DNA of 41,963 nucleotides from a virus (taxonomy: Duplodnaviria > Heunggongvirae > Uroviricota > Caudoviricetes): IMG/VR virus record IMGVR_UViG_2548876958_000014. One strand, given 5' to 3'. Below the pieces are notes generated by a model, which saw nothing but the letters and a program-made list of their open reading frames with translations, was not told the origin of the DNA and searched no databases. Shown piece after piece: positions 1 to 41,266 of the stretch; the stretch's first letter is position 1; every line of letters starts with the position of its first letter. Position numbers and translations under genes: made by a program.

Positions 1-1719
1 ATGATTTTTAGGGATAGCTTGAGAGTATTACCTTATGGTCGAGTAGATAATGATTTCTTCCAGATAGAAGAAAGACGTTCATGGAATGCAGGGCGATATT
101 ATTGGTCTAATAGAAGGATTTTTGGTTATATTGGAATTACTCAATCCAGTAATAAAGAGCTGAAAGATAAGTCGGGGAGAGAGGGATTCATAAGAAACCA
201 GGCTGCAAGAGAACTGAAAACTATTATATCTAATTTGTTAACTGAACTTGCTGATAGATTTTTTGGTTCACGTTCTGATGACCGTAAAGAGCTTTTAGAA
301 CAAGTTAAGCGTGAAAAAGAGTTAAGAAAATCTGCTCAACAACAAGCTCGAAAATCAACACAAAAAAGTTTTTCAGAAGCTTTGAAGAATCAGACACCAG
401 TTCTTGATGCTTCCTTGGAGGCTGTTAAAAGGCTGAAAACTAAGCTTGATAAAACTGATGGTTCGTTAGATTTAAACTATCTTAAAATTATAGACAGTGA
501 TCTTACAAACTTAGATGCGTTGCGCAGTGAAATTAAAACGCCTATCAAACCTCCAAAACTTGGAATGTATGAAGAGAAATATAGAGACTACAGAGATAAA
601 TTTAATGAGTTCTCTGCGTATATTCTACAAATGAAGTTAGCAATTAATAAACTTGATTCTGAATTAAATAAACTTGAGCCTTCATTGTCAGCGAAAAATC
701 ACCTTGAAAAAAATCAAGGTATTATTAATTCTAAACTAACTAAGTTTAATAACACGATAGAGGAGAAGATACATTCTCTTTTAAAAAAATGGGCCGATGA
801 AATAAAGGTTGATCGAAGTGATTATTATGCTAAAACTATATCAGTTGTTGATTCAATAGATAATGATTCACAAATTGAAAATGTGTTTAATTTGCTCGAT
901 AGTTTATATGTTGAGTCAGTTGATACCCTAACTTTCAAATATCAATCAATAATAAAAGGTCTCGATAGATTATTTGAAGGTATAAACTTAGATTCAGCAT
1001 TCTCATTATCTGAAGAAGAACGCTCATATTTTGAAGAAAAAGCTAAAAGTTTAAACGCGCTTGCACAGTTAGGTATTAGTGTTGAGATAATATCTCATGA
1101 ACTTGAAGAAATGGATTCTATGGTAACCAGAGGACTAAACTCTCTTCCTACTTCTGTAAAAGAACACCCTGGTTTTTCATTGGCGTTAAATGCTCACAGA
1201 TCGCTTACTCAACAAATACGTTTCTTATCACCTTTGAAAATATCAGGTTATCAATCCAGGCAGAGAATAACTGGAAAAAATATCATGGATTATGTCCTGA
1301 AGTTCTTTGGGGAGCGTTTCGAACGGCAACGAATAACTATTGAATTTAGTGAAGAGTTTAAGCAAATCGCAATAACAGATATACCATCAAGGATCTATCC
1401 TGTTTTTACTAATATTATCAACAATGCAATGTATTGGGTCAGTCTGTCAAATAATAGGCTCATAAAGATTGGTTTTGTGAATTCTTTGGTTATCATAGCA
1501 AATTCTGGTCCGGCAATTGATACCGATGATATCCCGCGACTATTTGAACTATTTTATAGCAAAAGAGCAAATGGACATGGGGTAGGTCTGTATCTATGTC
1601 GAGAAAACCTTGCTGTTGCACATCATAAAATATGGTATTCAGAACCTGATGAAGGCGATAACTATTTAATAAAAGATGGCGCTAATTTTGTGATCCAGTT
1701 CAATGGAGTGGAGTTCTAA
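1..1719 (+). CDS. Histidine-kinase-like protein (DHp H-box plus HATPase_c/GHKL ATPase domain), 5' end truncated by window edge
   Basis: ORF open from base 1; H-box-like ISHELEEMDSM; C-terminal N-box-like NIINNAMYW, G1-like DTDDIP, G2-like GHGVGLYLCRE; coiled-coil-rich region before it; AT-rich codon usage. Confidence 0.55.
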   Translation: MIFRDSLRVLPYGRVDNDFFQIEERRSWNAGRYYWSNRRIFGYIGITQSSNKELKDKSGREGFIRNQAARELKTIISNLLTELADRFFGSRSDDRKELLEQVKREKELRKSAQQQARKSTQKSFSEALKNQTPVLDASLEAVKRLKTKLDKTDGSLDLNYLKIIDSDLTNLDALRSEIKTPIKPPKLGMYEEKYRDYRDKFNEFSAYILQMKLAINKLDSELNKLEPSLSAKNHLEKNQGIINSKLTKFNNTIEEKIHSLLKKWADEIKVDRSDYYAKTISVVDSIDNDSQIENVFNLLDSLYVESVDTLTFKYQSIIKGLDRLFEGINLDSAFSLSEEERSYFEEKAKSLNALAQLGISVEIISHELEEMDSMVTRGLNSLPTSVKEHPGFSLALNAHRSLTQQIRFLSPLKISGYQSRQRITGKNIMDYVLKFFGERFERQRITIEFSEEFKQIAITDIPSRIYPVFTNIINNAMYWVSLSNNRLIKIGFVNSLVIIANSGPAIDTDDIPRLFELFYSKRANGHGVGLYLCRENLAVAHHKIWYSEPDEGDNYLIKDGANFVIQFNGVEF

Positions 1720-1720
1720 T

Positions 1721-3469
1721 ATGACAGTGGCAAATTATAATTCTCTTGTCCAGAAAACTTTCTGCGAAAATGTAATTCGTTCCGTTGTCATGATTGATGA
1801 CGATTTTCTGACGTATTCTGAATCAATCAGGGCGTTGAATAACGAAGTTGATTTAGACTACAACAAAATTGACTCATCTAAACGAGCCGCTACTCTTGAG
1901 AGCTTTTTTCAATCTAAAAATATGATTTGTGATGTTGACAATGGTTCTGTTAATTTCGATGTGGATCGGATTAGAAAATCAGATCTTATTATTGTAGATT
2001 ATCATCTTGATAATAATGCACCTGATAAAACACTTAAACTATTACAAGATTTGAAAGACTCCGATCATTTAAATATGATTGTAATATATACTAGAGAGAA
2101 TTTAGAAACGGTTTGGATGCAGATATCATCGACTCTCAAAGGTGCTCTGGATATCAACAGCTTGATCATTGACTACGATAATGAAGATGTCCAAAGTTAT
2201 TGGGAAGACGTTGTATTACCGAACTTAAATGATAATGGTAATAAAGCTCTCACAAGAGATGAAACAATAGCCTATATTAAAGACAGTAAGCCTTGTAGAA
2301 GAATTAAAAGATTAATACATGATGATGCTGTGTTGGAGGATCAAAAGGATAAAAACTTCATTGCAAAAATGATTGCAGAATATGCTGTGTCTAGAAATGC
2401 AATTATTTCTAGCAACACATCTGGCAATGTCATTCGGGGTGATGAAAGCGGAGTAAAATGGATTCAATGTGGTAATATCTTTGTCTCCCTATTTCATAAG
2501 GTTCAAGATGATCATGAAAACGATGGAGATAGAATTTGGCAAACTCTCAATGATTCTCTCATTGAATGGAAACCATCTTATTATCAGTTAATAAAATCTG
2601 AAATTCAGAATGCAATCGAAGCTGAGGCTTTATCTTTTGTAAATCATTTGGCTAACGATCATTACGGTCAAGCTGCGTGGTTAAATGAGATATTAAAATC
2701 AGACTCGCCTGATATTAGATGTAGAAATATTGACTTTGTATTTGGTAATTTATCAGAAGAGCTTTATCAAAGACTTAAAAATAATAATACGCTGGATGAA
2801 TTTATCAAAAGTGTTTTTGATAGCTATTCAAATGAATACGCTAACAGCGGAGTTGCTGCATTGCTCCAATATTGCTCTTCAAAAATGGATCTGCCATCAA
2901 ATAATGATACTTATCACGAAATGTATCATGCTTTAAATATGAATTTGTCTTCAAAGAATTTTGAAGATGGTCATATTTCTACTGGCACTATTTTCTTTGA
3001 TACAGAGTCGAACAAATGGTATTTATGTGTATCTGCGGCATGTGATTTGGTTCCTACTCAGGGTAACGACCCTCACCATGTAAGATTAAGTCCGCACAGG
3101 CTCATTAAAGTTCTGGAGCTTTTTAACGCCAGTCAGAGTAAAGCATTGCCATTTGCTGAACATTCGAAATATATATATGTAATGCATAAAAATCAAAGAA
3201 AATATCTCTCTATTTTCGAAGGGGATAAAACGCTTCCTGTTGTTGATTATATGGTGGTGTTGAATCATGGAACAACAGTTGATGGCGAAGAAAAAAATAT
3301 TATTTCTGCCGTGTTTTTAAGTAATATGGATGGCAACGTGCAAAATGTTCCTGTCCGACTCAAACTTAAATCTCAACTGAGAACTGGTTATGCAGAAAGA
3401 TATCAGGCTATAGCGTCTCAGTATAGCTCAAGGATTGGTGTGGATTATGTATCAATGATGCTACCATAA
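1721..3469 (+). CDS. Receiver (REC)-like N-terminal domain protein with ~450-aa C-terminal domain of unknown function (possible effector)
   Basis: ATG at 1721 two bases after upstream stop (ORF track gives 1703); N-terminal VVMIDDD acidic pair, DLIIVDYHL candidate phospho-acceptor Asp, NMIVIYT beta4 Thr; rest unrecognised. Confidence 0.45.
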   Translation: MTVANYNSLVQKTFCENVIRSVVMIDDDFLTYSESIRALNNEVDLDYNKIDSSKRAATLESFFQSKNMICDVDNGSVNFDVDRIRKSDLIIVDYHLDNNAPDKTLKLLQDLKDSDHLNMIVIYTRENLETVWMQISSTLKGALDINSLIIDYDNEDVQSYWEDVVLPNLNDNGNKALTRDETIAYIKDSKPCRRIKRLIHDDAVLEDQKDKNFIAKMIAEYAVSRNAIISSNTSGNVIRGDESGVKWIQCGNIFVSLFHKVQDDHENDGDRIWQTLNDSLIEWKPSYYQLIKSEIQNAIEAEALSFVNHLANDHYGQAAWLNEILKSDSPDIRCRNIDFVFGNLSEELYQRLKNNNTLDEFIKSVFDSYSNEYANSGVAALLQYCSSKMDLPSNNDTYHEMYHALNMNLSSKNFEDGHISTGTIFFDTESNKWYLCVSAACDLVPTQGNDPHHVRLSPHRLIKVLELFNASQSKALPFAEHSKYIYVMHKNQRKYLSIFEGDKTLPVVDYMVVLNHGTTVDGEEKNIISAVFLSNMDGNVQNVPVRLKLKSQLRTGYAERYQAIASQYSSRIGVDYVSMMLP

Positions 3470-3540
3470 TTATTATATTTTAGGCGTGGTGATTTTTTTT
3501 TGCCATGCCTATTTTATATTTATCATCACAATGATGTTGT

Positions 3541-3957
3541 TTATTTTTGTTTAAGTCTTCTAAGCTTCATGCATTCTAATGAGAATAATAATAGAGTTGT
3601 GCTGTATATAAAGCCAGAGTTAGTTAATAACTTTAAATTTAATGCTTCAGGATTTTCACTGAGAAAGTGAAAGGCATAAACTAAGTATACAGCTAAAGTA
3701 GCCGTTCCAATTGTTGGTCCAATATCGCCTTGATCATGAGGTTCAAGGTTTACATTGAACTTGAAGATTAGCCATTCAAATCCCCAAGTAAAAAAAACAA
3801 CTAATATCATGGCTGCGAATAATTTCGCGATGTTATCTGCTGATGGATTCATCAGAACAGATTGTTTCTGAAAAAATTCACAAAGTGAGAGTCCGAAAAA
3901 AATAAAAAAAAGTGGTCTGGAACTAAATTTTTCAAAAACTTTGAATAGGGTTTCCAT
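3541..3957 (-). CDS. Small hydrophobic (probable inner-membrane) protein
   Basis: 138-aa ORF with several hydrophobic stretches (LFFIFFGLSLCEF, AAMILVVFFTWGFEWLIF, TATLAVYLVYAFHF); AT-rich; convergent with upstream gene. Confidence 0.4.
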   Translation of the reverse strand: METLFKVFEKFSSRPLFFIFFGLSLCEFFQKQSVLMNPSADNIAKLFAAMILVVFFTWGFEWLIFKFNVNLEPHDQGDIGPTIGTATLAVYLVYAFHFLSENPEALNLKLLTNSGFIYSTTLLLFSLECMKLRRLKQK

Positions 3958-3995
3958 TTTCTTTACCTTCAGGATTATATTAGCTATTCTGATAC

Positions 3996-5225
3996 TTAGG
4001 CTACCAGAGCATTTGATCTTTGAGCTTGAACGTAATCACTCCACCATTGCATCAAACTCTGTCGCTCTATCAGATATTCTGCACGATTGTATGCTGCGAT
4101 AATTTCATCTTTTTTCGAGTGGGCAAGCGCTGCCTCAAGAACTTCAGCTCTGAATTTACCAGACTCCTCTGCCGCTGTTCGTGCAATAGAACGCATACCG
4201 TGAGCTACAAGCTCGCCTCCGAACCCCATTCGGATGATAGCTGCGTTGGCTGTTTGTTCATGCATATGATTAAGAGGCGCTTTTATGCTGGGGAAAACCC
4301 ATTCTCTATGCCCACTTATTGATTTCATTAATTCAAGGATGCGCAAAGCTTCTTTACTCAAAGGAACTTTGTGAAGCTTTTTCATTTTCATGAAATCAGC
4401 AGGAATGTTCCAAATGCTGTTGGTTGTATCAATATCAGACCACCTTGCGCGAACGGCTTCACCCGGACGAACCCATGTCAACAATTGCCATTCAATTAGC
4501 ATACGTGTTTCCAACCGGATTGACGCATTCGTCAAAGATTCCATAAACCTTGGCAATTCGCTTGGGGGAAGGGCAGGCATATTTTGCTTTTTTGGTTTAC
4601 TGAATCTTTGACCAAGGTTGTCAGCCGGGTTGAACTCAATAAGTTCTTCAGTAGCTGCCCACCGGAAGATTTCATTCAGACGTGAAATGATACGGCGTAG
4701 AGTTTCCAATACGCCTCGTTGCTCAATAGGATCAAGGTGTTGTTTTAAGAGCTTAGGTCGGATCTCATTGATAGGGACATTACCCAGACCGGGAAAGACA
4801 TTTCTCTCTAAGCTGCGCCAGATGTCTGCTGCATGGTCTTGTGAGATACCTGATGTCTTTACCTTCTCATCTAACCATTTCCGCGCTACGGCTTGGAGAG
4901 TGTGCTCAGTAGCACTCTTTAATGCCTTCGCCTTATCGTTGTTATGGATTTGGGGATCAACACCATTTGCCAGAAAGGAGAGATATTCATCACGTAAGGC
5001 TCTGGCTCTTGCAAGGGTAAGGTGAGGATATGTCCCAAGGCTCATTTTGGTTCTTTTCTTGCTCACTGGTACTGCATACCTGAAATACCAATTTTTCTTG
5101 CCTCCTTTCGCCAAAGGAGCGATTCGTAGAATCAGACCATCACCGTCAAACAAGTTGATTTCTTTATCGGCTGGCTTGGTGCTTTTGATTTCAGTGTCAG
5201 TGAGCTTCTTAGCGATTTTTGCCAT
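3996..5225 (-). CDS. Tyrosine recombinase / integrase, P4-IntA type
   Basis: ORF 3996..5267; likely start MAKIAKKLTDTEIKS at 5225; N-terminal arm-binding region typical of P4/CP4-57 IntA-like integrases; C-terminal catalytic region with HxxR-like AHGMRSIARTAA and Tyr in AYNRAEY; 165 bp from ssrA 3' repeat. Confidence 0.85.
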   Translation of the reverse strand: MAKIAKKLTDTEIKSTKPADKEINLFDGDGLILRIAPLAKGGKKNWYFRYAVPVSKKRTKMSLGTYPHLTLARARALRDEYLSFLANGVDPQIHNNDKAKALKSATEHTLQAVARKWLDEKVKTSGISQDHAADIWRSLERNVFPGLGNVPINEIRPKLLKQHLDPIEQRGVLETLRRIISRLNEIFRWAATEELIEFNPADNLGQRFSKPKKQNMPALPPSELPRFMESLTNASIRLETRMLIEWQLLTWVRPGEAVRARWSDIDTTNSIWNIPADFMKMKKLHKVPLSKEALRILELMKSISGHREWVFPSIKAPLNHMHEQTANAAIIRMGFGGELVAHGMRSIARTAAEESGKFRAEVLEAALAHSKKDEIIAAYNRAEYLIERQSLMQWWSDYVQAQRSNALVA

Positions 5226-5388
5226 TTTGGGACCCTCGGTTTTTGGACCCTTCTGAGTGGGTCCCATTCAGGGTGCCATAACTCGTAGTTCTCAGCAATT
5301 CTCACTGGACGACAATAGACGTAAAAAAGCCCGCAGAGCTTGTGCTGTGTGGGCTTAGTAGACTTCATTGAACTTCAAACAACTAAAA

Positions 5389-5430
5389 AGTGGTGCTGGC
5401 GGGAGTTGAACCCGCGTCCGAAATTCCTAC
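5389..5430. repeat. Direct repeat of the ssrA 3' end (att core; junction between prophage and neighbouring island)
   Basis: 5394..5430 is identical to 40912..40948 (37 bp); preceding TGGTG also matches but the ssrA GAG is missing, so it is a non-functional 3' fragment of tmRNA. Confidence 0.85.
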
Positions 5431-5624
5431 ATACCATTTTTATTATGGTAAAAACAGTAGATTATGTTTGAAAACAATGTGTTAGTGTTATTTTGTATTT
5501 GCTCGTCTTACGCGTTTTTAATGCTCTGCCGCCAAAGTGCCGCCATTACATCAAGTATCTAGAATAAAATTAGTTAATAAATTACAATTAATATGTTAAT
5601 TGTTCTTGCATTCATAAGTGGGAC

Positions 5625-7361
5625 GTGATGAAAGAAAAAAAATTCGTTAGTGAGCTTTTCCTTGAAAATGGGCAGTTTATTTTAGTCGGTTTGACAGGTC
5701 GAACTGGTTCTGGTTGCACAACAACAGCTAATATTCTTGAAAACGAAAAAACAGTCTTCCCTGATGTAAGTAAATTACAGGGGTTTTACAAGGGATTGGA
5801 TGTCCATCGTTATAATATAGTTAAAAAATTCGCAGAAAATCACTGGGAAAATTTTTACTCAATTAAGGTGAGTGACCTAATCTCAGCGTATCTTCTGATG
5901 TTAACAGTTGAGGAAGCTTCTGAATTCATTCTATCATCTAATAAATCTATCAGTAAAGAGCATTTAGATATTGTATTAACTTTTGGTGTATTCTCAGATA
6001 ATCTCATTTTGACAAGATTTAAAAATGTAATTGAGAATTTGCTTGATCATAATAGTGAATTGAAGCTTGATGAAAAAACGATTAATAAATTTATATCAAT
6101 TTTGAAGTTAGTTAGAAAATTTACTAAAGAATTCAAAGCTGAACTAAATGAGATAAACTCAAATTTATATGTTTCAGCCTATCAGTTAGCAGGTAAGTCA
6201 ATTAGACGTCGTGGGCGTATTGAAGTCGATTTTGAAGATAAAGAGTTTATGCCTAAATCTGTTTTTCATTTGCCGGAAACTATTAATAGGGTTATTAAAT
6301 TAATAAGAAAAAGCAAAAGAGATAACGCATTAATTGTCATAGATGCTATTAGAAATCCATATGAGGCAAAATTTTTTAAGGATAGATATTCTGCATTTCA
6401 TTTAATGTCAATAAATGCCCCAGATGAACATCGAACAAACTATTTGCGGAAACTACATAAGTTTTCAGAAAAGCAGATAGAGGAAATAGATTCTGTAGAG
6501 TCAGGTAAAGGTGATAACTCTTACAAACATCTCACCAATCCAAATGTAACTAAATGTATTGAACTATCAGATATACACATTTTTAACCCAAAAAATGAAT
6601 TTGATAATGACAATATTTTAAAAGCACAATTAGCGTGGTACATCGCACTGATGAAGCATCCTGGTCTGATAACACCTACTGCAATGGAAAGGGTTATGCA
6701 AGTTGCGTATACGGTAAAATTAAACTCTGGCTGTATATCTAGACAGGTGGGAGCTGTAGTAACTGATGGTGATAATTCAATAAAATCAGTTGGTTGGAAT
6801 GATGTTGCCAACGGTCAGATTCCTTGCTCTATGAGATCTCTAGATGGCCTAATGAACGATTTTGATGAAAAAACGTACAGTCATTATGAGAGAAATAATA
6901 GTTCTTTCAGAATTAAAGCTAATGAGAAACTCTTAAATTTTAGGGCGATAGATAAAACTGGTGATATTTATAGAGGCAGGAACTTATCTTATTGTTTTAA
7001 AGATATACATAATGATCTTGATAAAGAGAAAAAAGGTAATCAAGTTCATACACGTGCATTACATGCTGAGGAAAACGCATTTTTGCAACTTGCAAAATAT
7101 GGTGGTATTGGCGTTCTGGGGGGGAAGTTGTATACAACTGCCAGTCCCTGTGAGTTGTGTGCGAAAAAAGCTTATCAGTTAGGTATATCTGAAATTGTAT
7201 TTATTGATCCCTACCCAGGTATAGCTCAAGACCATATTATTAATATAGGTAGTAAGCCACCAAAGTTAATACAATTTAGAGGCGCAATTGGGAAGTCATA
7301 TCACCGACTTTATGAGCAAATTATCCCGATAAAAGATGAGTTAGAATATCTCCTTGAGTAG
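5625..7361 (+). CDS. Fusion protein: N-terminal P-loop nucleotide-kinase-like domain + C-terminal cytidine/dCMP deaminase zinc-binding domain (resembles anti-phage dCTP deaminase architecture)
   Basis: N-terminal GLTGRTGSGCTTTANIL (CoaE/dNK-like P-loop with Cys where Lys is expected); C-terminal HAEENAF and SPCELCAKKA (H-A-E ... P-C-x-x-C deaminase zinc motifs); AT-rich; sits between att repeat and P2-type int. Confidence 0.6.
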   Translation: MMKEKKFVSELFLENGQFILVGLTGRTGSGCTTTANILENEKTVFPDVSKLQGFYKGLDVHRYNIVKKFAENHWENFYSIKVSDLISAYLLMLTVEEASEFILSSNKSISKEHLDIVLTFGVFSDNLILTRFKNVIENLLDHNSELKLDEKTINKFISILKLVRKFTKEFKAELNEINSNLYVSAYQLAGKSIRRRGRIEVDFEDKEFMPKSVFHLPETINRVIKLIRKSKRDNALIVIDAIRNPYEAKFFKDRYSAFHLMSINAPDEHRTNYLRKLHKFSEKQIEEIDSVESGKGDNSYKHLTNPNVTKCIELSDIHIFNPKNEFDNDNILKAQLAWYIALMKHPGLITPTAMERVMQVAYTVKLNSGCISRQVGAVVTDGDNSIKSVGWNDVANGQIPCSMRSLDGLMNDFDEKTYSHYERNNSSFRIKANEKLLNFRAIDKTGDIYRGRNLSYCFKDIHNDLDKEKKGNQVHTRALHAEENAFLQLAKYGGIGVLGGKLYTTASPCELCAKKAYQLGISEIVFIDPYPGIAQDHIINIGSKPPKLIQFRGAIGKSYHRLYEQIIPIKDELEYLLE

Positions 7362-7741: not shown

Positions 7742-8758
7742 CTATCTTAAGTTGCATAAAGGGTTTTTAGTTACCGCATCTTCAAGGTGATCGGGCGAAA
7801 AGTGGGCGTAAATCATCGTCATTTTTATATCGGCATGGCCCAGAATATCGCGCAGCACCAGTATGTTTCCGCCATTCATCATAAAATGGCTGGCGAATGT
7901 ATGACGTAGCACGTGAGTGCATTGGCCCTCTGGCAGCTCGATGCCAGCTCGCTTTACTGCTCGTTCAAAGGCTTTTCTGCACGGGGTGAATAGCTTCCCT
8001 CTGTTCTTGGGGAGTTCGTCATACAGATCTTGAGATATCGGCACGGTGCGGTTTTTCTTACCCTTCGTCTTGGTATAAGTGATGCGGTATTTAGATAACT
8101 GATGGCCCTGCAGGTTTTCAGCTTCACTCCAGCGTGCGCCGGTGGCCAGGCATATTTTTGCAATCAAAAGCAGACTGGGGTTTTGAGAATCAGCGCAGGC
8201 ATCTAGCAGACGTTTAATTTCTTCCGAGGTCAGGAACGCCAGTTCCCCCTCAGCGATTTTAAATGTTGGCAGCCCGGCGAGAGGATTTGGTGCTGACCAG
8301 TGGCCTAGTTTTTTCAATGTGCCGAAAACCGATGATAGGTTACGTTGCTCAAGATTCACCGTGCGTGGTTTTACTGGCGACATTAGTGTGCCGTCTTCGT
8401 TACGAACGTCACCTTTTAACCGTGCTTCGCGGTATTTCGTAAAGTCACCGGCTGTCAGTTCTGAGGCGATGGGGTCGCCTAGACCATTACAGATAATTCT
8501 AAGTTTCGCCATGAGGCGCTTGGGGTCTGCGAGTGTCTGACCATACAGGGAATACCAAAGCTCAATTAATTCTGATAGGCGTCGCCGATCATCCTTTTCA
8601 CCCAACCACGGTTTTTTATTCACTTCTTCCATTGTGAAGCTTTCAAAAGCAATGGCTTCGCCTTTCGTAGCAAATTGCTTACGCACGCGCTTACCATTGC
8701 GTCCATTGGGATAGCACTCACACAACCATTTTCCGTTCGGCTGTTTTCTGATGGTCAT
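7742..8758 (-). CDS. int: P2/186-type tyrosine integrase
   Basis: 338 aa, matching the ~337-aa P2/186 integrases; conserved stretches CLATGARWSEAE, KYRITYTKTKGKKNRTVPIS, VLRHTFASHFMMNGGNILVL, MTMIYAHF; followed by repressor gene in same orientation. Confidence 0.9.
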   Translation of the reverse strand: MTIRKQPNGKWLCECYPNGRNGKRVRKQFATKGEAIAFESFTMEEVNKKPWLGEKDDRRRLSELIELWYSLYGQTLADPKRLMAKLRIICNGLGDPIASELTAGDFTKYREARLKGDVRNEDGTLMSPVKPRTVNLEQRNLSSVFGTLKKLGHWSAPNPLAGLPTFKIAEGELAFLTSEEIKRLLDACADSQNPSLLLIAKICLATGARWSEAENLQGHQLSKYRITYTKTKGKKNRTVPISQDLYDELPKNRGKLFTPCRKAFERAVKRAGIELPEGQCTHVLRHTFASHFMMNGGNILVLRDILGHADIKMTMIYAHFSPDHLEDAVTKNPLCNLR

Positions 8759-11337: not shown

Positions 11338-12191
11338 GCACCATCCTGAAATGGGCGGGAAATAAAACCGCCATTATGTCCGAACTGAAAAAACACCTTC
11401 CTGCTGGCCCGCGACTGGTTGAACCTTTCGCGGGTTCCTGTGCTGTGATGATGGAGACGGATTACCCCAGCTATCTTGTTGCGGATATTAATCCTGATTT
11501 AATCAACCTCTATAAAAAGGTTGCTGCTGATTGTGAGGCATTTATATCTCGTGCCAGAGCTTTATTTGAGGAAGCAAACAGGGAGGTGGCTTATTACAAC
11601 ATAAGGCAGGAGTTTAATTACTCCACTGAAATTACTGATTTCATGAAAGCGGTATATTTTCTGTATCTCAATCGTCATGGTTACCGTGGGTTATGTCGCT
11701 ATAACAAGAGCGGGTATTTCAACATTCCCTACGGTAATTATAAAAATCCGTATTTCCCTGAAAAAGAAATTCGCGCATTTGCAGAGAAAGCCCAGCGGGC
11801 AACGTTTATCTGCGCCAGCTTTGATGAAACGCTGGCGATGTTGAAGGCGGGGGATGTGGTGTATTGCGATCCGCCGTATGACGGCACGTTTTCCGGTTAT
11901 CACACTGACGGCTTCACTGAAGATGACCAGTATCACCTGGCATCCGTTCTTGAACATCGGTCATCAGAAGGACATCCGGTCATTGTTTCTAACAGTGACA
12001 CATCCCTGATCCGTTCGCTGTATCGCAATTTTACTCACCACTACATCAAGGCAAAACGCAGCATCGGCGTAGCAGCTGGTGAGAGTAAATCTGCAACAGA
12101 AATCATCGCTGTTTCTGGGGCGCGCTGCTGGGTGGGATTTGATCCTTCGCGTGGCGTGGATAGTTCTGCCGTGTACGGAGTGCGTGCATGA
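11334..12191 (+). CDS. DNA N6-adenine methyltransferase (Dam-like, orphan)
   Basis: ATG 11334; N-terminal KWAGNK and EPFAGS (SAM-binding) and catalytic DPPY motif; no cognate restriction gene seen. Confidence 0.75.
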
Positions 12192-14602
12192 GCCATGCTG
12201 ATATGAACAACTGCAGCGGCTTTAACGAGGCCGCCGCAGCATTCTCATGGAACAGCCCGAAAAAGGCTATTAACCCTTATCTGGACCCGGCGGAAGTTGC
12301 GCCGGTTTCTGCGCTTTCAAACCTGATCACTCTGTACGCTGCCGATAACGAGCAGGAACAACTGCGCCGTGAGGCACTGAGTGATCAGGTCTGGGAGCGT
12401 TATTTCTTTAATGAATCCCGTGATCCTGTCCAGCGCGAAATGGAGCAGGATAAGCTCATTAGCCGGGCAAAGCTGGCGCATGAGCAGCAGCGTTTTAATC
12501 CAGACATGGTCATTCTGGCAGACGTCAACGCCCAGCCTTCCCATATCAGCAAGCCGCTGATGCAACGTATTGAATACTTCAGCAGCCTGGGCAGGCCAAA
12601 GGCTTATTCCCGCTATTTGCGTGAGACGATTAAGCCATGTCTGGAACGACTGGAGCATGTACGCGAGAGTCAGCTATCCACTTCTTTTCGCTTTATGGCA
12701 AGCCATGAAGGGCTGGACGGCCTGCTGATCCTGCCTGAAATGAGTCAGGATCAGGTGAAACGCCTGTCCACCCTTGTTGCTGCGCATATGAGCATGTGTC
12801 TTGATGCAGCTTGTGGCGATTTGTATGCCACCGATGACGTTAAGCCAGAAGAAATCCGCAAAACATGGGAAAAGGTGGCAGCGGAAACCCTGCGTCTGGA
12901 TGTTATTCCGCCTGCGTTTGAGCAACTCCGTCGGAAAAGAAACCGCCGTAAACCCGTGCCCTATGAACTCATTCCGGGTTCGCTGGCGCGTATGTTGTGT
13001 GCCGACTGGTGGTATCGGAAATTATGGAAGATGCGTTGCGAATGGCGGGAAGAGCAGTTGCGTGCTGTCTGCCTGGTCAGCAAAAAAGCATCCCCCTATG
13101 TCAGCTATGAAGCCGTGATGCATAAACGTGAGCAGCGCCGTAAGTCGCTGGAGTTTTTTCGTTCTCATGAACTGGTGAACGAAGACGGCGACACGCTGGA
13201 TATGGAATATGTGGTAAACGCCAGCAGCAGCAACCCTGCGCATCGCCGCAATGAGATGATGGCCTGTGTTAAAGGTCTGGAGCTTATCGCGGAAATGCGC
13301 GGTGACTGCGCCGTTTTCTACACCATCACCTGTCCGTCACGTTTCCATTCCACGCTAAATAACGGCAGGCCCAACCCAACCTGGACAAATGCGACGGTAA
13401 GACAAAGCAGTGATTATCTGGTCGGCATGTTTGCTGCATTTCGTAAGGCGATGCACAAAGCCGGATTGCGGTGGTATGGCGTGCGGGTGGCTGAGCCGCA
13501 TCATGACGGTACAGTTCACTGGCACCTGTTGTGTTTTATGCGCAAAAAAGACCGCCGCGCCATCACTGCATTACTGCGTAAGTTTGCCATCCGTGAAGAC
13601 CGCGAGGAGCTGGGCAATAACACAGGGCCGCGCTTTAAGTCTGAGTTGATTAACCCGCGCAAAGGAACGCCGACAAGCTACATCGCGAAATACATTAGTA
13701 AGAACATTGACGGGCGTGGTCTGGCTGGCGAGATCAGCAAGGAAACGGGTAAATCCCTGCGTGATAACGCTGAATACGTTAATGCCTGGGCGTCTCTGCA
13801 TCGTGTTCAGCAATTCCGCTTCTTTGGCATTCCGGGGCGTCAGGCTTACCGTGAACTGCGATTGCTGGCTGGTCAGGCGGCAAGGCAACAGGGGGACAAA
13901 AAAGCAGGTGCGCCGGTACTGGATAACCCGCGCCTTGATGCAATCCTGGCTGCTGCTGATGCTGGTTGTTTTGCCACCTACATCATGAAGCAGGGCGGCG
14001 TACTGGTTCCCCGCAAATATCACCTGATCAGAACCGCTTATGAAATCAACGAAGAGCCGACCGCCTATGGCGATCACGGCATTCGTATTTATGGCATCTG
14101 GTCACCCATTGCAGAGGGCAAGATCTGCACTCATGCAGTGAAGTGGAAAATAGTTCGTAAGGCCGTTGACGTTCAGGAGGCGGCAGCCGACCAGGGCGCT
14201 TGCGCCCCTTGGACTCGTGGCAATAACTGTCCCCTTGCTGAAAATTTGAACCAACAAGGGAAAGACAAATTAGCTGATGGGGACTCCAGAACGGATATTA
14301 CCTGTATGAATGACAAGGAGTTGCACGATTACCTGCACAGTATGAGCAAAAAAGAGCGCCGGGAACTGGCTGCAAGGTTACGCCAGGTGAAACCGAAACG
14401 GCGTAAAGACTACAAACAGCGAATTACAGACCATCAGCGACTGCAGCTCGTGTATGAGCTGAGGTCCAGAGGATTTGATGGCAGCGAGAAAGAGGTCGAT
14501 TTACTCCTTCGCGGCGGCAGTATTCCGTCAGGAGCAGGCCTGCGTATCTTCTATCGGAACCAGCGTTTGCAGGAAGATGACAAGTGGCGGAACCTGTATT
14601 AA
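12188..14602 (+). CDS. A: Replication initiation protein gpA (rolling-circle HUH endonuclease)
   Basis: 804 aa; HUH-like [10 protein letters not shown] and Tyr-rich YIAKYISKN catalytic region; P2/186 gene A position. Confidence 0.85.
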
Positions 14603-15497: not shown

Positions 15498-16577
15498 GTG
15501 GCGTTATCAGATGCGTTAATTACAGTAAATCAAGCAGAACGGGGCGGTGAAAACGCGTTGAGAGGCTTTTCATATCAAGCCTCTTGGGGGATAAATTATT
15601 TACTTGAAAAACAAAAAGAAAAGGAGAAATATTTATTTCTATTTGAATATCATGACGATATTCTTGTATTGAATTCATCTGTTTCTCCGACTAGTGCTGA
15701 GTTTATCCAAGTTAAAACAAAAAAAGATGGTAAATGGACACTCGCAGCAATAGTGAACGCAACAAAAGCTAAACCTAAATCATTTGTTGCAAAACTATAT
15801 GACCATTTCTATCAATTCGTTGGTCACGAAATTTATATGGTTCTGTTATCGAATGCTGGATTCGATTTCTTAAATGATAATAACGAAAAAGGTAGTGATC
15901 TTAATAATGAGCATAAGGAAATTATAATTAGTAAGGTTCAAGAGCAGCTAAATACTAAAAAAGAAGTTCCTCTTGATAAAATAAAATTTAAAACATCTGA
16001 TCTTAGTTTGTTAGATCCTAACTCACATTTATACGGGAAAGTTGCAGTTTTTTTGAATTCTTACTTTGGGGATGATCATGGTATTAATTCAACAGCATTC
16101 ACTAAATTATTAATCAATAAGTGTAATGAGAAGGTTAGTGTTGCTTCTAGTGATATCAAAACTTTTGAAGATTTAGTACTAAAGAAAGGTATATCTTCAG
16201 AATTTGTAACTGATTTATTATCTGGACTCATTGCAAGCATAAAAATAACGCCAAAATGGGAACAGGTTTGTATGTTGCTTGGTACTTTCTCAGATCCTTA
16301 TGAGGGGATTAAATTACAATCAGTTTTTACACGCATATCAATAAAAGTGCTCAATGTCAATTCAATATACTATCTTTATTTTCTGGAATTTCAATCGGCT
16401 CTAAAGAGTATAGAGCATTATCGTGAGATACCTGTTCGAGACCTCTTCTTTACACTCGAAAAAACAATTGCAGCGGGGGACGGGGATTTCTCTTTATTAA
16501 ATCAAGAAGAGAAATTTATGATTGCTATATATGCAATTATAAAGTTGACTTTTGAGGATGTTTCTTATGAAGAATAA
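15498..16577 (+). CDS. Candidate defence effector: nuclease-like protein (possible PD-(D/E)xK / Cap4-like fold; LmuA-like)
   Basis: 359 aa, GTG start; N-terminal GFSYQ and acidic cluster EYHDDILV followed by EFIQVKTKK (D...(E/Q)xK-like); AT-rich; stop overlaps downstream start. Confidence 0.5.
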   Translation: MALSDALITVNQAERGGENALRGFSYQASWGINYLLEKQKEKEKYLFLFEYHDDILVLNSSVSPTSAEFIQVKTKKDGKWTLAAIVNATKAKPKSFVAKLYDHFYQFVGHEIYMVLLSNAGFDFLNDNNEKGSDLNNEHKEIIISKVQEQLNTKKEVPLDKIKFKTSDLSLLDPNSHLYGKVAVFLNSYFGDDHGINSTAFTKLLINKCNEKVSVASSDIKTFEDLVLKKGISSEFVTDLLSGLIASIKITPKWEQVCMLLGTFSDPYEGIKLQSVFTRISIKVLNVNSIYYLYFLEFQSALKSIEHYREIPVRDLFFTLEKTIAAGDGDFSLLNQEEKFMIAIYAIIKLTFEDVSYEE

Positions 16578-18225
16578 CGTTAAATTTAAAAATATAAAAA
16601 TACTCTCATTAAGAGACAGAAAAGCTTTTTCTTATGAGTTTTCAGAAGGGGTTAACTTCATATATGGTACAAATGATGTTGGTAAATCAAGCCTGATTAA
16701 AAGTCTTTATTACACATTAGGTGGAGATTTAAGGCTTGATGATGCTTGGAAATCAGATGATATAGTTACACTGGTGGAAATTAATAACGGGGAAAGTGAT
16801 TTTATTTTTTTGCGTTATAAAAAGATTATTGGTGTCTTTGATTTGAAGAATGATGATCTAGTCGTGTATAACACGATTTCATCATTAGCATCTCGTGTTT
16901 CAAATATATTTGGTTTTAAACTGGAATTACATAATAAATATACGGGTGCTACGACTCAGGCAAACCCTGCTTGTTTGTTTGCCCCATTCTTTATTGATCA
17001 GGATGAAGGATGGAAAGCGGTGATAAATTCTTTCGAAAACATGAGTATGTACTCAGAATGGCAAAAAAACATTCTTTACTATCACTCTGGAATTAAGCCA
17101 AAGGAATATTACACAGTTCAAGGGAAAATCAAAGAAGTTAAAGTTAAAATTTCAGAGTTAGATGGTTTTGTTAAGGTTCTAAAAAGAAGCAAAAGTAAGA
17201 TTGATGAATCTTTTGGTGTGGTTTTATTTGATGTTGATTTGGATTTTTATAAATCAAAGTTAGAACGTATATTAAATGAATATTCTAATTTGAATTTAGT
17301 TCAGACAGAATATAGATTGAATCTTTTGAGGTTATATTCTAGGAAGAATTTCCTTGAGAGTGAACTCAAAGAGATAACTGCGATTATTGATAATGAATTT
17401 GAGATTTCGAATTTTCGAGATGATAATGTTGCTTATTCAGTAAATGAATATAATTATATAAACCATAGAGATGAAATGCTCAAAAACATTGCTGTTCTTG
17501 CAGATGAGAAAAGCAAGATTGAGGAAAATATTCCTAAATTGAATCAAAAGCTAGAAGAGTCAAGGGCTGCTTCAGAGGCGTTGCAGGCGCTGATTTTAGA
17601 AACTCAATCGGAAATAACGCTTCATGATGTTATTAAATCTGCTGCATACCATGAAATTGAATCTACTTTTGTTTCACAGTTAGATGAGTTATTCGTTGAG
17701 ATTGGTCGAAAAGAAGGCGAGTTGACAGAATTACAAGAAGAATTAGAAGTATACAATGATAAGAAAAGAACTGTTAAAATAAATGACTGTTTCAAAGAGT
17801 ATTTCGCTAAAGCTCTTAAAGAGCTTGGTGTCGAAAATACAAAGGTAGGTGGCCTTAGTAGTTATAATAATATTACTAAGGGTAAGACTGGTAGTCGAGG
17901 TCCTCGAGGTATATTTGCATTTCACTACGCGCTACTTAGTGTTATGAAAAGCAACTCTTCAGTTGAGAATATGCCTATAGTAATAGACTCTCCAAAGCAA
18001 CAAGATTTGGATCCAGAGCATACGCATAAGCTTATAAAACTATGCTTGGATGGGTTTTCCCTTACAAATCAGATTATTATTGGCACTGTTGGTTATGAGA
18101 GTTTCATGGATGGTTTTAATAGCATCAAACTTGAAAATAAATATCATCTTTTAAATGATGAACATTATGATAATGTTTATTCTCAATTAATGCCATTGTT
18201 TGAACGGGTGATACTTTCAAGATGA
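16552..18225 (+). CDS. SMC/Rad50-like ABC ATPase with central coiled coil (LmuB-like)
   Basis: Walker A GTNDVGKSS; long heptad-rich middle; C-terminal PIVIDSPKQQDLD (Walker B / D-loop-like); possible starts 16552/16558/16567 overlap upstream gene. Confidence 0.55.
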   Translation: MRMFLMKNNVKFKNIKILSLRDRKAFSYEFSEGVNFIYGTNDVGKSSLIKSLYYTLGGDLRLDDAWKSDDIVTLVEINNGESDFIFLRYKKIIGVFDLKNDDLVVYNTISSLASRVSNIFGFKLELHNKYTGATTQANPACLFAPFFIDQDEGWKAVINSFENMSMYSEWQKNILYYHSGIKPKEYYTVQGKIKEVKVKISELDGFVKVLKRSKSKIDESFGVVLFDVDLDFYKSKLERILNEYSNLNLVQTEYRLNLLRLYSRKNFLESELKEITAIIDNEFEISNFRDDNVAYSVNEYNYINHRDEMLKNIAVLADEKSKIEENIPKLNQKLEESRAASEALQALILETQSEITLHDVIKSAAYHEIESTFVSQLDELFVEIGRKEGELTELQEELEVYNDKKRTVKINDCFKEYFAKALKELGVENTKVGGLSSYNNITKGKTGSRGPRGIFAFHYALLSVMKSNSSVENMPIVIDSPKQQDLDPEHTHKLIKLCLDGFSLTNQIIIGTVGYESFMDGFNSIKLENKYHLLNDEHYDNVYSQLMPLFERVILSR

Positions 18226-18265: not shown

Positions 18266-19300
18266 TTAAATTTTTAGTTCGTAGGTTGAAAAATTTATAA
18301 TTCTATCGTTTAACCAATTATTTATTTCTAGAAACATTTTTTGTAGAGGCAGTAGCTCATTTCGTACAAATACTGTGCTTGCCTTTTCGATATCCCCAAA
18401 CCCCCCGACATTATTAGGCATTATCCCCATCATTTGTGGCGGCACACGATGCGCCGCCATCATGTCGTCCCGGCTCACGTTCTTGATATTCAGGAACTCA
18501 TCCTTCGCCGCCACTTCTGACAACGGGATAATCTGAAGCCCGTCCTTTTTACCGTTAGGCGAGTACATAAACAGGTTACGGAAGTTACCAGGACCTTTGG
18601 CGCTTTTCATCGCATTGCGGAGGTTGTTCACATCCTCCTGGTTCTGCGCAGCATCGGTCATGTACATGATGAAGCCTGCATGACTGCCGTTAATGTAATA
18701 CTTGCGGCGGAACAGCGTGGCGGACTCGTTGAGCAGAGCTGACGGAATGGCAGAAAGATAACCGGGCAGGCCGTAGATCTCCTGGTTGATGTCCGGTTCC
18801 ATCAGATGAAAAATGCTGCCTTTCGTGAACTGATACGGCTGGGTTGTCATACCGTATTGCACAAACCAGTAGGTATCCAGGTCTAACCCGCGTCGGGTGT
18901 ATTTTGCCAGCGCAGGCTCAAGGGCGATAACTTCACCGAATCGGTTCGTGCGTTTCTCCAGGTAGGCGTTACCAAATACCAGATAGTCCTGCACAAAACG
19001 CGAAAAAGCCTGCTGGCTGAGCAGCGGATGAGGGATATAGGTACTGGTCAGAATGTTGCACTTTACTGCAATCGGGGAACTGTGATGCACGGCAGCGCGG
19101 AAGGTGCGCGCCAGTCCGTCAAAGCTGACGGGCGGCTCATACCAACGGTCCATCTGTACGCATTCCACATAGTCCAGCAGTTCTCGGCGATCCAGAACAG
19201 GAACGGGATCGCCGAAGCTGAATGCTTCGGCTGTAGTCTGGCTTTTAAGCTGGATCTGTTTCGTCGCCGCAGCGCGGTTCTTCTTACTCTTTCCCATCAA
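18266..19300 (-). CDS. Q: Portal protein gpQ
   Basis: 344 aa (the length of P2 Q); precedes terminase ATPase gene on same strand, as in P2. Confidence 0.85.
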   Translation of the reverse strand: MMGKSKKNRAAATKQIQLKSQTTAEAFSFGDPVPVLDRRELLDYVECVQMDRWYEPPVSFDGLARTFRAAVHHSSPIAVKCNILTSTYIPHPLLSQQAFSRFVQDYLVFGNAYLEKRTNRFGEVIALEPALAKYTRRGLDLDTYWFVQYGMTTQPYQFTKGSIFHLMEPDINQEIYGLPGYLSAIPSALLNESATLFRRKYYINGSHAGFIMYMTDAAQNQEDVNNLRNAMKSAKGPGNFRNLFMYSPNGKKDGLQIIPLSEVAAKDEFLNIKNVSRDDMMAAHRVPPQMMGIMPNNVGGFGDIEKASTVFVRNELLPLQKMFLEINNWLNDRIINFSTYELKI

Positions 19301-21063
19301 AAAATCTCCACAATATTGCTGGTATTGGCGGATTCGCCCTGCAGCGGTTCGTTAAACAGTGCGTGCATTGTTGCCCAGGCCAGATCGGCGTGGCTGGCTT
19401 CTTCGCTGCGGCTGGCTTCATAGGTCGGGCGGTTGCCGCTGGCGGTGGTTGCGCGACGGATTGCCATGAATGACTGCGCAATGTCGGTGTGCCCGGCGTC
19501 AAACTCCAGACGGCGGTGGCTGATAATGTCGTAGGCCTTGAGTACCAGGGCGTTTTTAACATTGGGGTTGTAGACAAACTCCCGGACGGCAGGAAAGAAC
19601 GCTTTCACGTTCTCATAAACCCCGTGACCAACGCCGGTTGAGTCGATACCGATATAGGTCACGTTGTACTGTTCGGTGAGTTTTTTGATGGCGTCAGCCT
19701 GGGCGCGGAAGTCCATCCCGCGCCACTGGTGACGCTCAAGAATGCGGAACTTACCACCCGGCACGGCTGGCGGAGCCACCACCACGCATCCGGCACTGTC
19801 GCCGTTCTGCGTACCTTTTGCCGGGTCATAACCGATCCACACTTCGCGCCAGCCAAACGGGCGCAGGGCCAGTGCATGAAAGTCGGTCCAGACTTCCCAG
19901 CTGTCCACCATGCACGCCTGCAGTTCGCTGAGCGGGAACACGGACGCGAGATCGTCCACGAACTCGCACATCAGCAGGTTCTGGTATTCGTCCGGGCTGT
20001 ACTCCAAGCGTAGCTGGTCGAGGTCGAACAGGTTACAGCCGCCGCGCACCGCATCTTCCACGGTGACTATCTGGCGGTATTGCCCGTCTGCGCACAGCAG
20101 GCCGGGGGCCAGATTGCTGTGGGACAGGTCGATGTCCACCTTGTCAGCTTTGTTGCGTCCACGGTTGAACAGCGCACCGGACCAGAACGGATAAGCACTG
20201 TGGGTCAGGCTGGATGGCGTGGAAAAATAGGTTTGTCGCCATTTTTTGTGAATAGCCATCCCGGAAGCCACTTTGCGCAGCTCCTGGAATTTCGGTATCC
20301 AGAAATATTCATCCAGATACAGGTTGCCGTGATAACTCTGGGCCGTGCGGGCATTGGTGCCGAGGAAGTAAAGCGTAGCTCCGTTAGGAAGCACCATCGG
20401 ATCGCCTTTTAGCTCCACCTCGACTTCTTTGGCGAAGTCGATGATGTATTGTTTAAAGACGTGGGCCTGAGCCTTACTGGCAGAAAGGAAAATCTGGTTA
20501 CGTCCGGTAAGCAGGGCGTCAATCAGGGCTTCACGGGCAAAATAGAAGGTCGCGCCGATCTGGCGTGACTTCAGCAGGTTGCGGATGCGGTTGGTTTTTC
20601 CGGCTTCCCACCAGTGGCGCTGGTAGTTGAACATGGAGGAATGGAAGATTTCTTCCAGCTTCTCAATCTGCTCATCGGTGAAAACATTCTTTTCCGGCTG
20701 ACGGCGTGGGCCTTTATTGCGGTTGGCGACGTTAGGGTTTAAGTCGGCTTCGTTGCCGCCATTGTTAAACTTGCCGATCCGCGCGTGGCGCTCAGACTGG
20801 CGCGCCAGCAGGTCAATCTCTTTGAAATCTTTCCCTTCTTTGTGCTCCTTCATAATGAGCTGGCAGTAGCGTGCGGCGGTGGTGAGCTGCATCTGATCCA
20901 GCGGCCCATAGTCACCCCACTTGTCGCGTTTTTTCCAGCTGTGAACGGTTGCAACTTTCTCGCCCAGCATTTCAGCAATGCGGGCTACGCGGTATCCCTG
21001 AAAGTACAGCAGCATGGCCTGCCGACGGGGATCGAGATCTGCGGGTGTCAGTGTGGTGTTCAT
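19297..21063 (-). CDS. P: Terminase large (ATPase) subunit gpP
   Basis: 588 aa; N-terminal HTH-like region, Walker-A-like RQIGATFYF context, nuclease C-terminal region; overlaps Q start by 4 bp. Confidence 0.9.
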   Translation of the reverse strand: MNTTLTPADLDPRRQAMLLYFQGYRVARIAEMLGEKVATVHSWKKRDKWGDYGPLDQMQLTTAARYCQLIMKEHKEGKDFKEIDLLARQSERHARIGKFNNGGNEADLNPNVANRNKGPRRQPEKNVFTDEQIEKLEEIFHSSMFNYQRHWWEAGKTNRIRNLLKSRQIGATFYFAREALIDALLTGRNQIFLSASKAQAHVFKQYIIDFAKEVEVELKGDPMVLPNGATLYFLGTNARTAQSYHGNLYLDEYFWIPKFQELRKVASGMAIHKKWRQTYFSTPSSLTHSAYPFWSGALFNRGRNKADKVDIDLSHSNLAPGLLCADGQYRQIVTVEDAVRGGCNLFDLDQLRLEYSPDEYQNLLMCEFVDDLASVFPLSELQACMVDSWEVWTDFHALALRPFGWREVWIGYDPAKGTQNGDSAGCVVVAPPAVPGGKFRILERHQWRGMDFRAQADAIKKLTEQYNVTYIGIDSTGVGHGVYENVKAFFPAVREFVYNPNVKNALVLKAYDIISHRRLEFDAGHTDIAQSFMAIRRATTASGNRPTYEASRSEEASHADLAWATMHALFNEPLQGESANTSNIVEIF

Positions 21064-40903: not shown

Positions 40904-41266
40904 TGGTGGAGCTGGCGGGAGTTGAACCCGCGTCCGAAATTCCTACATCCTCGGTACTACATGCTTAGTCAGTCTTTACATTCGCTTGCCAGCTGCGGAC
41001 GGACACGCCACTAACAAACTAGCCTGATTAAGTTTTAACGCTTCAACCCCAGGCAGGGCTTCCACGCGATCTCTTTTGGGTTTGACCTCTCTTGATCCCC
41101 GTCCTAAGAGCGGAGGCTAGGGAGAGAGGGCTCTAAGCAGGTTATTAAGCTGCTAAAGCGTAGTTTTCGTCGTTTGCGACTATTTTTTGCGGCTTTTTAC
41201 GAGGCCAACCGCCCCTCGGCATGCACCTTGGGTTTCGCAAATCCCGTCGAATCCAGAATCAGCCCC
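40904..41266 (-). ncRNA. ssrA: tmRNA (SsrA), complete
   Basis: Reverse complement begins GGGGCTGATTCTGGATTCGACGGG and ends ...GGTTCAACTCCCGCCAGCTCCACCA; contains tag ORF GCAAACGACGAAAACTACGCTTTAGCAGCTTAA (ANDENYALAA); 363 nt. Confidence 0.95.

Follow-up and report, generated by a model that had tools for sequence, protein, structure and literature searches.

A near-universal cysteine at the Walker A lysine position in the kinase-fold domain of an anti-phage dCTP deaminase

Anti-phage dCTP deaminases act after phage infection by converting dCTP (and dCMP) to deoxyuridine nucleotides, which starves phage DNA synthesis of dCTP, as described in the literature on relatives of the protein studied here. 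Tal et al. defined the family by an N-terminal kinase-like domain joined to a C-terminal zinc-dependent cytidine/dCMP deaminase domain in a protein of >350 amino acids (10.1101/2021.04.26.441389), and reported that the enzyme of E. coli AW1.7 depletes dCTP during infection (10.1101/2021.04.26.441389; later Nat Microbiol 2022). The AvcD/DcdV protein of Vibrio cholerae VSP-I has the same architecture of a P-loop kinase-like domain and a dCMP deaminase domain; both domains are required, and an anti-phage role has been described (Hsueh et al., 10.1101/2021.03.31.437871; PMC10511110). DcdV/AvcD deaminates dCTP as well as dCMP and is inhibited post-translationally by the sRNA AvcI/DifV, encoded 5' of its gene, and mutations that escape this sRNA lie partly in the kinase-like domain, which was termed "of unknown function" (10.1101/2021.03.31.437871). 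Activation of AvcID follows the decay of the labile antitoxin RNA after transcription shut-off (PMC10511110). The point of interest in the present locus is the job of this kinase-fold domain, and why the family has fixed a cysteine at the position of the catalytic lysine.

The window, i.e., the whole stretch of DNA analyzed here (41,963 nucleotides of the Caudoviricetes record IMGVR_UViG_2548876958_000014), contains a gene for a protein of 577 amino acids that matched the PADLOC dCTPase model (1.6e-145) and the NCBIfam equivalog NF041025, "anti-phage dCTP deaminase", with 425.4 bits (cutoff 400) and over profile positions 1 to 437 of 437 (Table 1). Pfam recognized only the C-terminal dCMP_cyt_deam_1 domain and, below threshold, AAA_18 at the P-loop. 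The start codon is the one annotated by RefSeq in an E. coli copy with 100% identity. The protein shows the two-domain organization described by Tal et al., with a kinase-like N-terminal and a deaminase C-terminal part and more than 350 residues, and the family P-loop GxTGxGC[ST] and the deaminase motifs H-A-E and P-C-x-x-C are all intact. The gene is also located on a mobile element, which is delimited by ssrA att copies and carries a Lamassu system, and it lies beside a P2-type integrase. The 577-aa protein thus belongs, as an ordinary member, to the anti-phage dCTP deaminases of Tal et al., as does AvcD/DcdV of V. cholerae. Its homologues number in the thousands, many of them carrying the name "anti-phage dCTP deaminase". 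Among 5426 complete E. coli genomes, the allele itself occurred in only 20, with 97.5 to 100% identity, and all 20 copies are annotated as dCTP or deoxycytidylate deaminase.

Table 1. Positions of the deaminase gene, its motifs and its neighbors in the window.
Feature	Position	Strand	Remarks
HATPase_c+HEF_HK gene	1-1719		Gene pair of the older island
Response_reg_2 gene	1703-3469		Gene pair of the older island
P4-type integrase	3996-5267	-	ssrA terminator copy precedes at 5327-5341 (-)
Copy of the ssrA 3' end (att repeat), 38 bp	5395-5432	.	Exact repeat of 40911-40948
Upstream intergenic region, 195 nt, AT-rich	5433-5627	+	Expected place of the promoter and of a candidate AvcI/DifV-type antitoxin RNA, by analogy with V. 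cholerae difV/avcI
Anti-phage dCTP deaminase gene	5628-7361	+	577 aa; ATG at 5628; stop codon counted in the end coordinate
N-terminal P-loop kinase-fold domain (residues 1-345)	5628-6662	+	Helical insert of ~150 aa between beta2 and beta3
Non-canonical Walker A/P-loop, G24-R-T-G-S-G-C30-T-T	5697-5723	+	C30 codon TGC at 5715-5717
R193 of the helical insert, consensus NIRxxG	6204-6206	+	Invariant in the 110-sequence alignment; 100% of 105 distant representatives
Walker-B-like strand and motif, hhhhD239-A-I-R242-N243-P-Y-E246	6330-6365	+	Aligns with VVFDGVRSLAEVE of SSO1041
C-terminal zinc-dependent dCMP-deaminase-type domain	6663-7358	+	G389-W-N391, H479-A-E481, P507-C508-E-L-C511; invariant C369/C400/C456
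C369	6732-6734		
C400	6825-6827		
C456	6993-6995		
P2-type integrase	7742-8758	-	
Replication gene (gene A)	12188-14602		
Lamassu LmuA	15498-16577	+	4e-143
Lamassu LmuB	16552-18225	+	6e-253
Portal/terminase genes	18266-21063	-	
tmRNA gene, intact	40904-41266	-	Overlaps the att repeat 40911-40948

Among the characterized systems, the AW1.7 enzyme (WP_045268677.1) is closely similar, with 72% identity over the full length. It shares the domain order and the Cys clusters of the 577-aa protein, and the stretch FILVGLTGRTGSGCTTTANILE is identical in both, down to the residue numbers (G29, C30). Both genes lie in mobile-element or defence contexts adjoining a tyrosine recombinase. They differ, however, in allele group (577 aa in the window, 576 aa in AW1.7) and in location, the gene of the window being flanked by an ssrA att repeat and a P2-type integrase and that of AW1.7 lying in a tRNA-Phe island, and their upstream regions are unrelated. 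AvcD/DcdV represents a more distant branch of 532 amino acids, in which about 110 residues separate Walker A from Walker B, compared with 209 in the protein of the window. Such a spacing occurred in 0 of 270 retrieved homologues, and V. cholerae AvcD was absent from the best 120 or 150 homologues and from 80 genome loci. Among distant family members outside the window (P0199, P0210, P0215), some have an N-terminal TIR or caspase-like Peptidase_C14 domain placed ahead of the Cys-P-loop kinase-deaminase module, and others of ~770 to 860 aa have an unannotated C-terminal extension of ~200 aa.

The two halves of the protein can also be compared with proteins that contain only one of them. The archaeal kinase SSO1041 (UPF0200/AdkA-like; 3lw7, 3h0k) and the dephospho-CoA kinases (CoaE; 1uf9, 2grj, 8dv0, 2if2) are without the helical insert of ~150 aa and without the deaminase fusion, share only 11 to 18% identity with the protein of the window and, unlike it, have a canonical Walker A Lys. 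The dCMP deaminases of T4 (Cd, 1vq2), S. mutans (2hvv) and cyanophage S-TIM5 (4p9c) and the bifunctional dCMP/dCTP deaminase of PBCV-1 (7fh4) are stand-alone enzymes of 140 to 190 aa that serve dTTP synthesis and have no kinase-like domain. A search of the INPHARED phage genomes gave no close relative, only distant deaminase-domain matches with at most 31% identity. One phage protein, a cytidine deaminase of the Burkholderia phage phiE094 (B. thailandensis; NC_055911.1, 32378-33223), shows 27% identity to residues 237 to 529, a match that spans the Walker B part through the deaminase domain and leaves the P-loop outside.

The P-loop region (5697-5735) reads GGT CGA ACT GGT TCT GGT TGC ACA ACA ACA GCT AAT ATT on the plus strand and is translated, in frame with the open reading frame 5628-7361, to G24 R25 T26 G27 S28 G29 C30 T31 T32 T33 A34 N35 I36. 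The motif G-R-T-G-S-G-C-T-T, as first given by a reading of the sequence alone (here, the sequence-only reading), is therefore literally correct. That reading had also placed the cysteine at the position of the Walker A lysine in a kinase-like domain fused to a deaminase, and profile alignments of the N-terminal domain bear this out. The profile segment viGLTGRTGSGCtt was aligned to ITGMPGSGKSE of SSO1041 (3lw7/3h0k), to GITGNIGSGKST of Thermus thermophilus CoaE (1uf9) and to GVTGKIGTGKST of Thermotoga maritima CoaE (2grj), in each case with C30 on the Lys. The rest of the 577-aa protein showed no further Walker A, so that the possibility of a true Walker A at another site, raised together with the original observation, did not materialize. 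A canonical Walker A (GxxxxGK[ST] with its invariant Lys) is absent from this protein and from essentially the whole family; the P-loop kinase fold, with a Walker B Asp after a hydrophobic strand, is present. An AlphaFold2 model calculated from a 110-sequence alignment was very confident (pLDDT 93.1, pTM 0.92) and showed the expected arrangement of a strand (residues 17 to 23), a loop and a helix (residues 30 to 38).

We then looked at how widely the cysteine is shared. The pattern GRTGSGC[TS][TS] was found in 115 of 115 full-length close homologues. Cys also occupies position 30 in 124 of ~132 cluster representatives with a recognizable loop (50%-identity clusters, down to ~35% identity) and in 98 of the 102 aligned distant representatives; overall, about 94% of the representatives have it. 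Among 75 loci of named species from Proteobacteria, Cyanobacteria, Firmicutes, Bacteroidota and Desulfobacterota, 74 have Cys and one has Ser. Both Cys codons are in use at this position (TGT 44, TGC 31; AGT 1), which indicates that residue 30 is held at the protein level. Neither Lys nor Arg was found there in the family sequences examined, and the rare variants (V, Y, T, S, L or A) are all singleton clusters of one or two contigs in which the remaining site is kept. Judged from these alignments, C30 is an ancient, selected signature of the family. The concern that the Cys might be a strain-specific substitution is thereby removed (115 of 115 close homologues; 74 of 75 loci), and the same motif in 20 independent complete E. 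coli genomes with 97.5 to 100% identity excludes a sequencing error. Taken together, a sequencing error, a strain-specific degeneracy or a random occurrence of the motif outside a kinase domain has a negligible probability, being contradicted by the 20 E. coli genomes, hundreds of homologues and the evidence for the fold.

A residue conserved to this degree might be a reactive thiol, i.e., a redox or metal switch or a residue that forms a covalent intermediate (S-phospho or S-nucleotidyl), and might in this way control activation on infection, maybe together with the second conserved cysteine of the N-terminal domain, C310. The near-universal presence of C30 (93% of the distant representatives) and of C310 (97%) speaks for this explanation, as does the observation that the lysine has been replaced by Cys in particular rather than by just any small residue. 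Nevertheless, we regard it as very unlikely, since the sporadic V/Y/T/S/L/A variants, though all singletons, keep the remaining site, a CX5R context of the PTP type is missing, and the known trigger of AvcID is the decay of its antitoxin RNA (PMC10511110).

The remainder of the kinase-fold domain is strongly conserved. In alignments of close and distant representatives, T23, G24, G29 and R193 are invariant, and we infer a role of R193 in phosphate binding. Among the distant representatives, position 31 is S or T, the usual Mg ligand, in 100%, and a basic residue (R or K) stands at position 25 in 89%. The Walker B region is likewise maintained in these representatives (D239 96%, R242 85%, N243 91%, E246 98%), and so are R269 (91%), E291 (99%), C310 (97%) and D315 (97%). 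This pattern is unlike that of a decaying pseudo-domain and resembles a nucleotide or phosphate site that is still maintained except for one specific residue. The domain does not appear to be a dead relic, because S/T31, D239, R193, R242, E246 and R269 are kept and because mutation of the loop abolishes defence in the AW1.7 enzyme.

This mutation, G29A+C30A in the E. coli AW1.7 enzyme, abolished both defence and dCTP depletion (Tal et al., 10.1101/2021.04.26.441389). The P-loop is thus required for both activities, as shown in the 72%-identical AW1.7 enzyme only. The sequence-only reading had proposed to mutate the Cys and to assay defence; in essence, this had already been done in AW1.7, with loss of activity, albeit only as a double mutant. 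G29A+C30A is the only reported mutation of the Cys and, being a double mutant, could simply wreck the loop. In DcdV/AvcD of V. cholerae, the Walker A exchange S52K and the Walker B double exchange D162A+Q163A abolished activity at normal protein levels (10.1101/2021.03.31.437871). No report of kinase activity or phosphotransfer for the family, and no measurement of nucleotide binding or ATPase activity for the N-terminal domain, was found in the literature searched. Sequence and profile searches of the PDB gave no structure of a family member, and papers on the structure or biochemistry of the N-terminal domain were likewise not found.

The lysine of a Walker A motif normally neutralizes the beta- and gamma-phosphates and the transition state. 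Ordinary phosphotransfer is argued against in this family because the Walker A Lys is universally absent. The C30 loop is the true P-loop in the N-terminal domain of a bona fide dCTP deaminase, and, as the most economical model, we think that this domain is probably a binding, licensing or assembly module and not a classical phosphotransferase. The kinase-fold domain would still bind nucleotide or phosphate, since the other ligands are retained, and the bound molecule could be the dCTP substrate or an NTP/dNTP effector. Without a Lys to stabilize the transferred gamma-phosphate, the N-terminal domain would then serve the binding of ligand, the licensing or the assembly of the fused deaminase. 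The proposal of a nucleotide-binding or sensor module, made at the outset from the loss of the lysine, is consistent with the lack of Lys in any member and the lack of reported kinase activity; full retention of the Mg-ligand, Walker B and Arg residues would also be expected of an active enzyme.

Indeed, the N-terminal domain might be an active kinase or NTPase in which another basic residue, R/K25, R193 or R269, replaces the missing Lys. Position 25 is the place of the "signature" Lys in deviant Walker A ATPases, and a relocated catalytic lysine is known from the WNK protein kinases, to which such an enzyme can be likened. All other kinase-site residues are conserved, R or K stands at position 25 in 89% of the distant representatives, compared with M, N, K or G in SSO1041 and the CoaE proteins, and both the loop (in AW1.7) and Walker B (in DcdV/AvcD) are essential. 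However, R25 is not invariant, as A, Q, W, L and others occur beside an intact C30, no kinase or NTPase activity has been reported, and the observed products, deoxyuridine nucleotides and loss of dCTP, need deamination only. An active kinase or NTPase is therefore rather unlikely in our view.

A related idea is that the exchange of Lys for Cys, far from being a mere inactivation, created an unusual P-loop chemistry with a catalytic part in dCTP deamination, either a thiol-dependent step or a kinase/NTPase with a relocated basic residue (R25, R193 or R269). We consider this distinctly unlikely. If true, the thiol-dependent step would be a covalent or metal-bridged contact to the dCTP triphosphate or else a redox gate, and the kinase-fold domain would help to turn a dCMP-type deaminase into a dCTP deaminase. 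In any case, the cysteine P-loop is already known as the normal signature of an annotated defence enzyme and does not define a new kind of system, and an answer on C30 would add detail to how a known system works rather than uncover a new one.

Outside the P-loop domain, the cysteines of the deaminase part deserve a remark. C369, C400 and C456 are invariant and stand apart from the catalytic zinc ligands H479, C508 and C511. A structural metal site besides the catalytic one is known from the dCMP deaminase of T4. C369 and C400 correspond to C370 and C401 of the AW1.7 enzyme, and the exchanges C370A/C401A were described by Tal et al. as disrupting zinc binding (10.1101/2021.04.26.441389). By analogy, this suggests a second, structural metal site at C369/C400/C456 of the 577-aa protein.

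Since DcdV/AvcD is controlled by an RNA encoded 5' of its gene, the intergenic region upstream of the deaminase gene was analyzed as well. In the AvcID type III toxin-antitoxin system, the antitoxin RNA is encoded directly 5' of the deaminase gene and co-transcribed with it. The intergenic region of the window is identical in the E. coli copy with 100% identity. A comparison with Rfam yielded no match within it, only the flanking ssrA att copy, and neither a sigma-70-like promoter nor a terminator was found there. Folding gave a z-score of +1.17, with an energy not better than that of shuffled sequences, and the region could not be aligned to the sequences upstream of the gene in the 72%-identity and other allele groups. 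AvcI sequences are reported as not conserved (10.1101/2021.03.31.437871). The upstream region bears on a further explanation, in which the main task of the P-loop is to hold a phosphate of an antitoxin RNA of the AvcI/DifV type; the domain would then offer a surface for binding the regulator instead of a nucleotide site. This appears highly improbable, as P-loop mutants lose activity rather than turning constitutively toxic and no AvcI-like RNA could be shown upstream of this deaminase gene.

Two direct repeats, the 38-bp copy of the ssrA 3' end upstream of the gene and its counterpart at the intact tmRNA gene, bracket ~35.5 kb that comprise the deaminase gene and a P2-like prophage with integrase, CI/Cox-type regulators, replication gene A and structural genes. 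Flanked by the att copy on one side and the P2-type integrase on the other, the deaminase gene has the appearance of prophage cargo located at the att-int junction. The same prophage contains the Lamassu pair LmuA and LmuB between the replication gene and the portal/terminase genes, the classical P2 tin/old cargo hotspot. With the Lamassu pair on the same prophage as the deaminase, two defence loci are carried. The deaminase gene adds a further example to the known enzymes that defend by nucleotide depletion, here as cargo of a Lamassu-bearing P2-like prophage.

To the left of the prophage element, positions 1 to 5390 of the window form a second, older ssrA-type island with its own P4-type integrase. 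This island contains a gene pair encoding a HATPase_c+HEF_HK protein and a Response_reg_2 protein. PADLOC gave no match for the HEF_HK/Response_reg_2 pair, which may represent a Kaur/Aravind-type conflict system.
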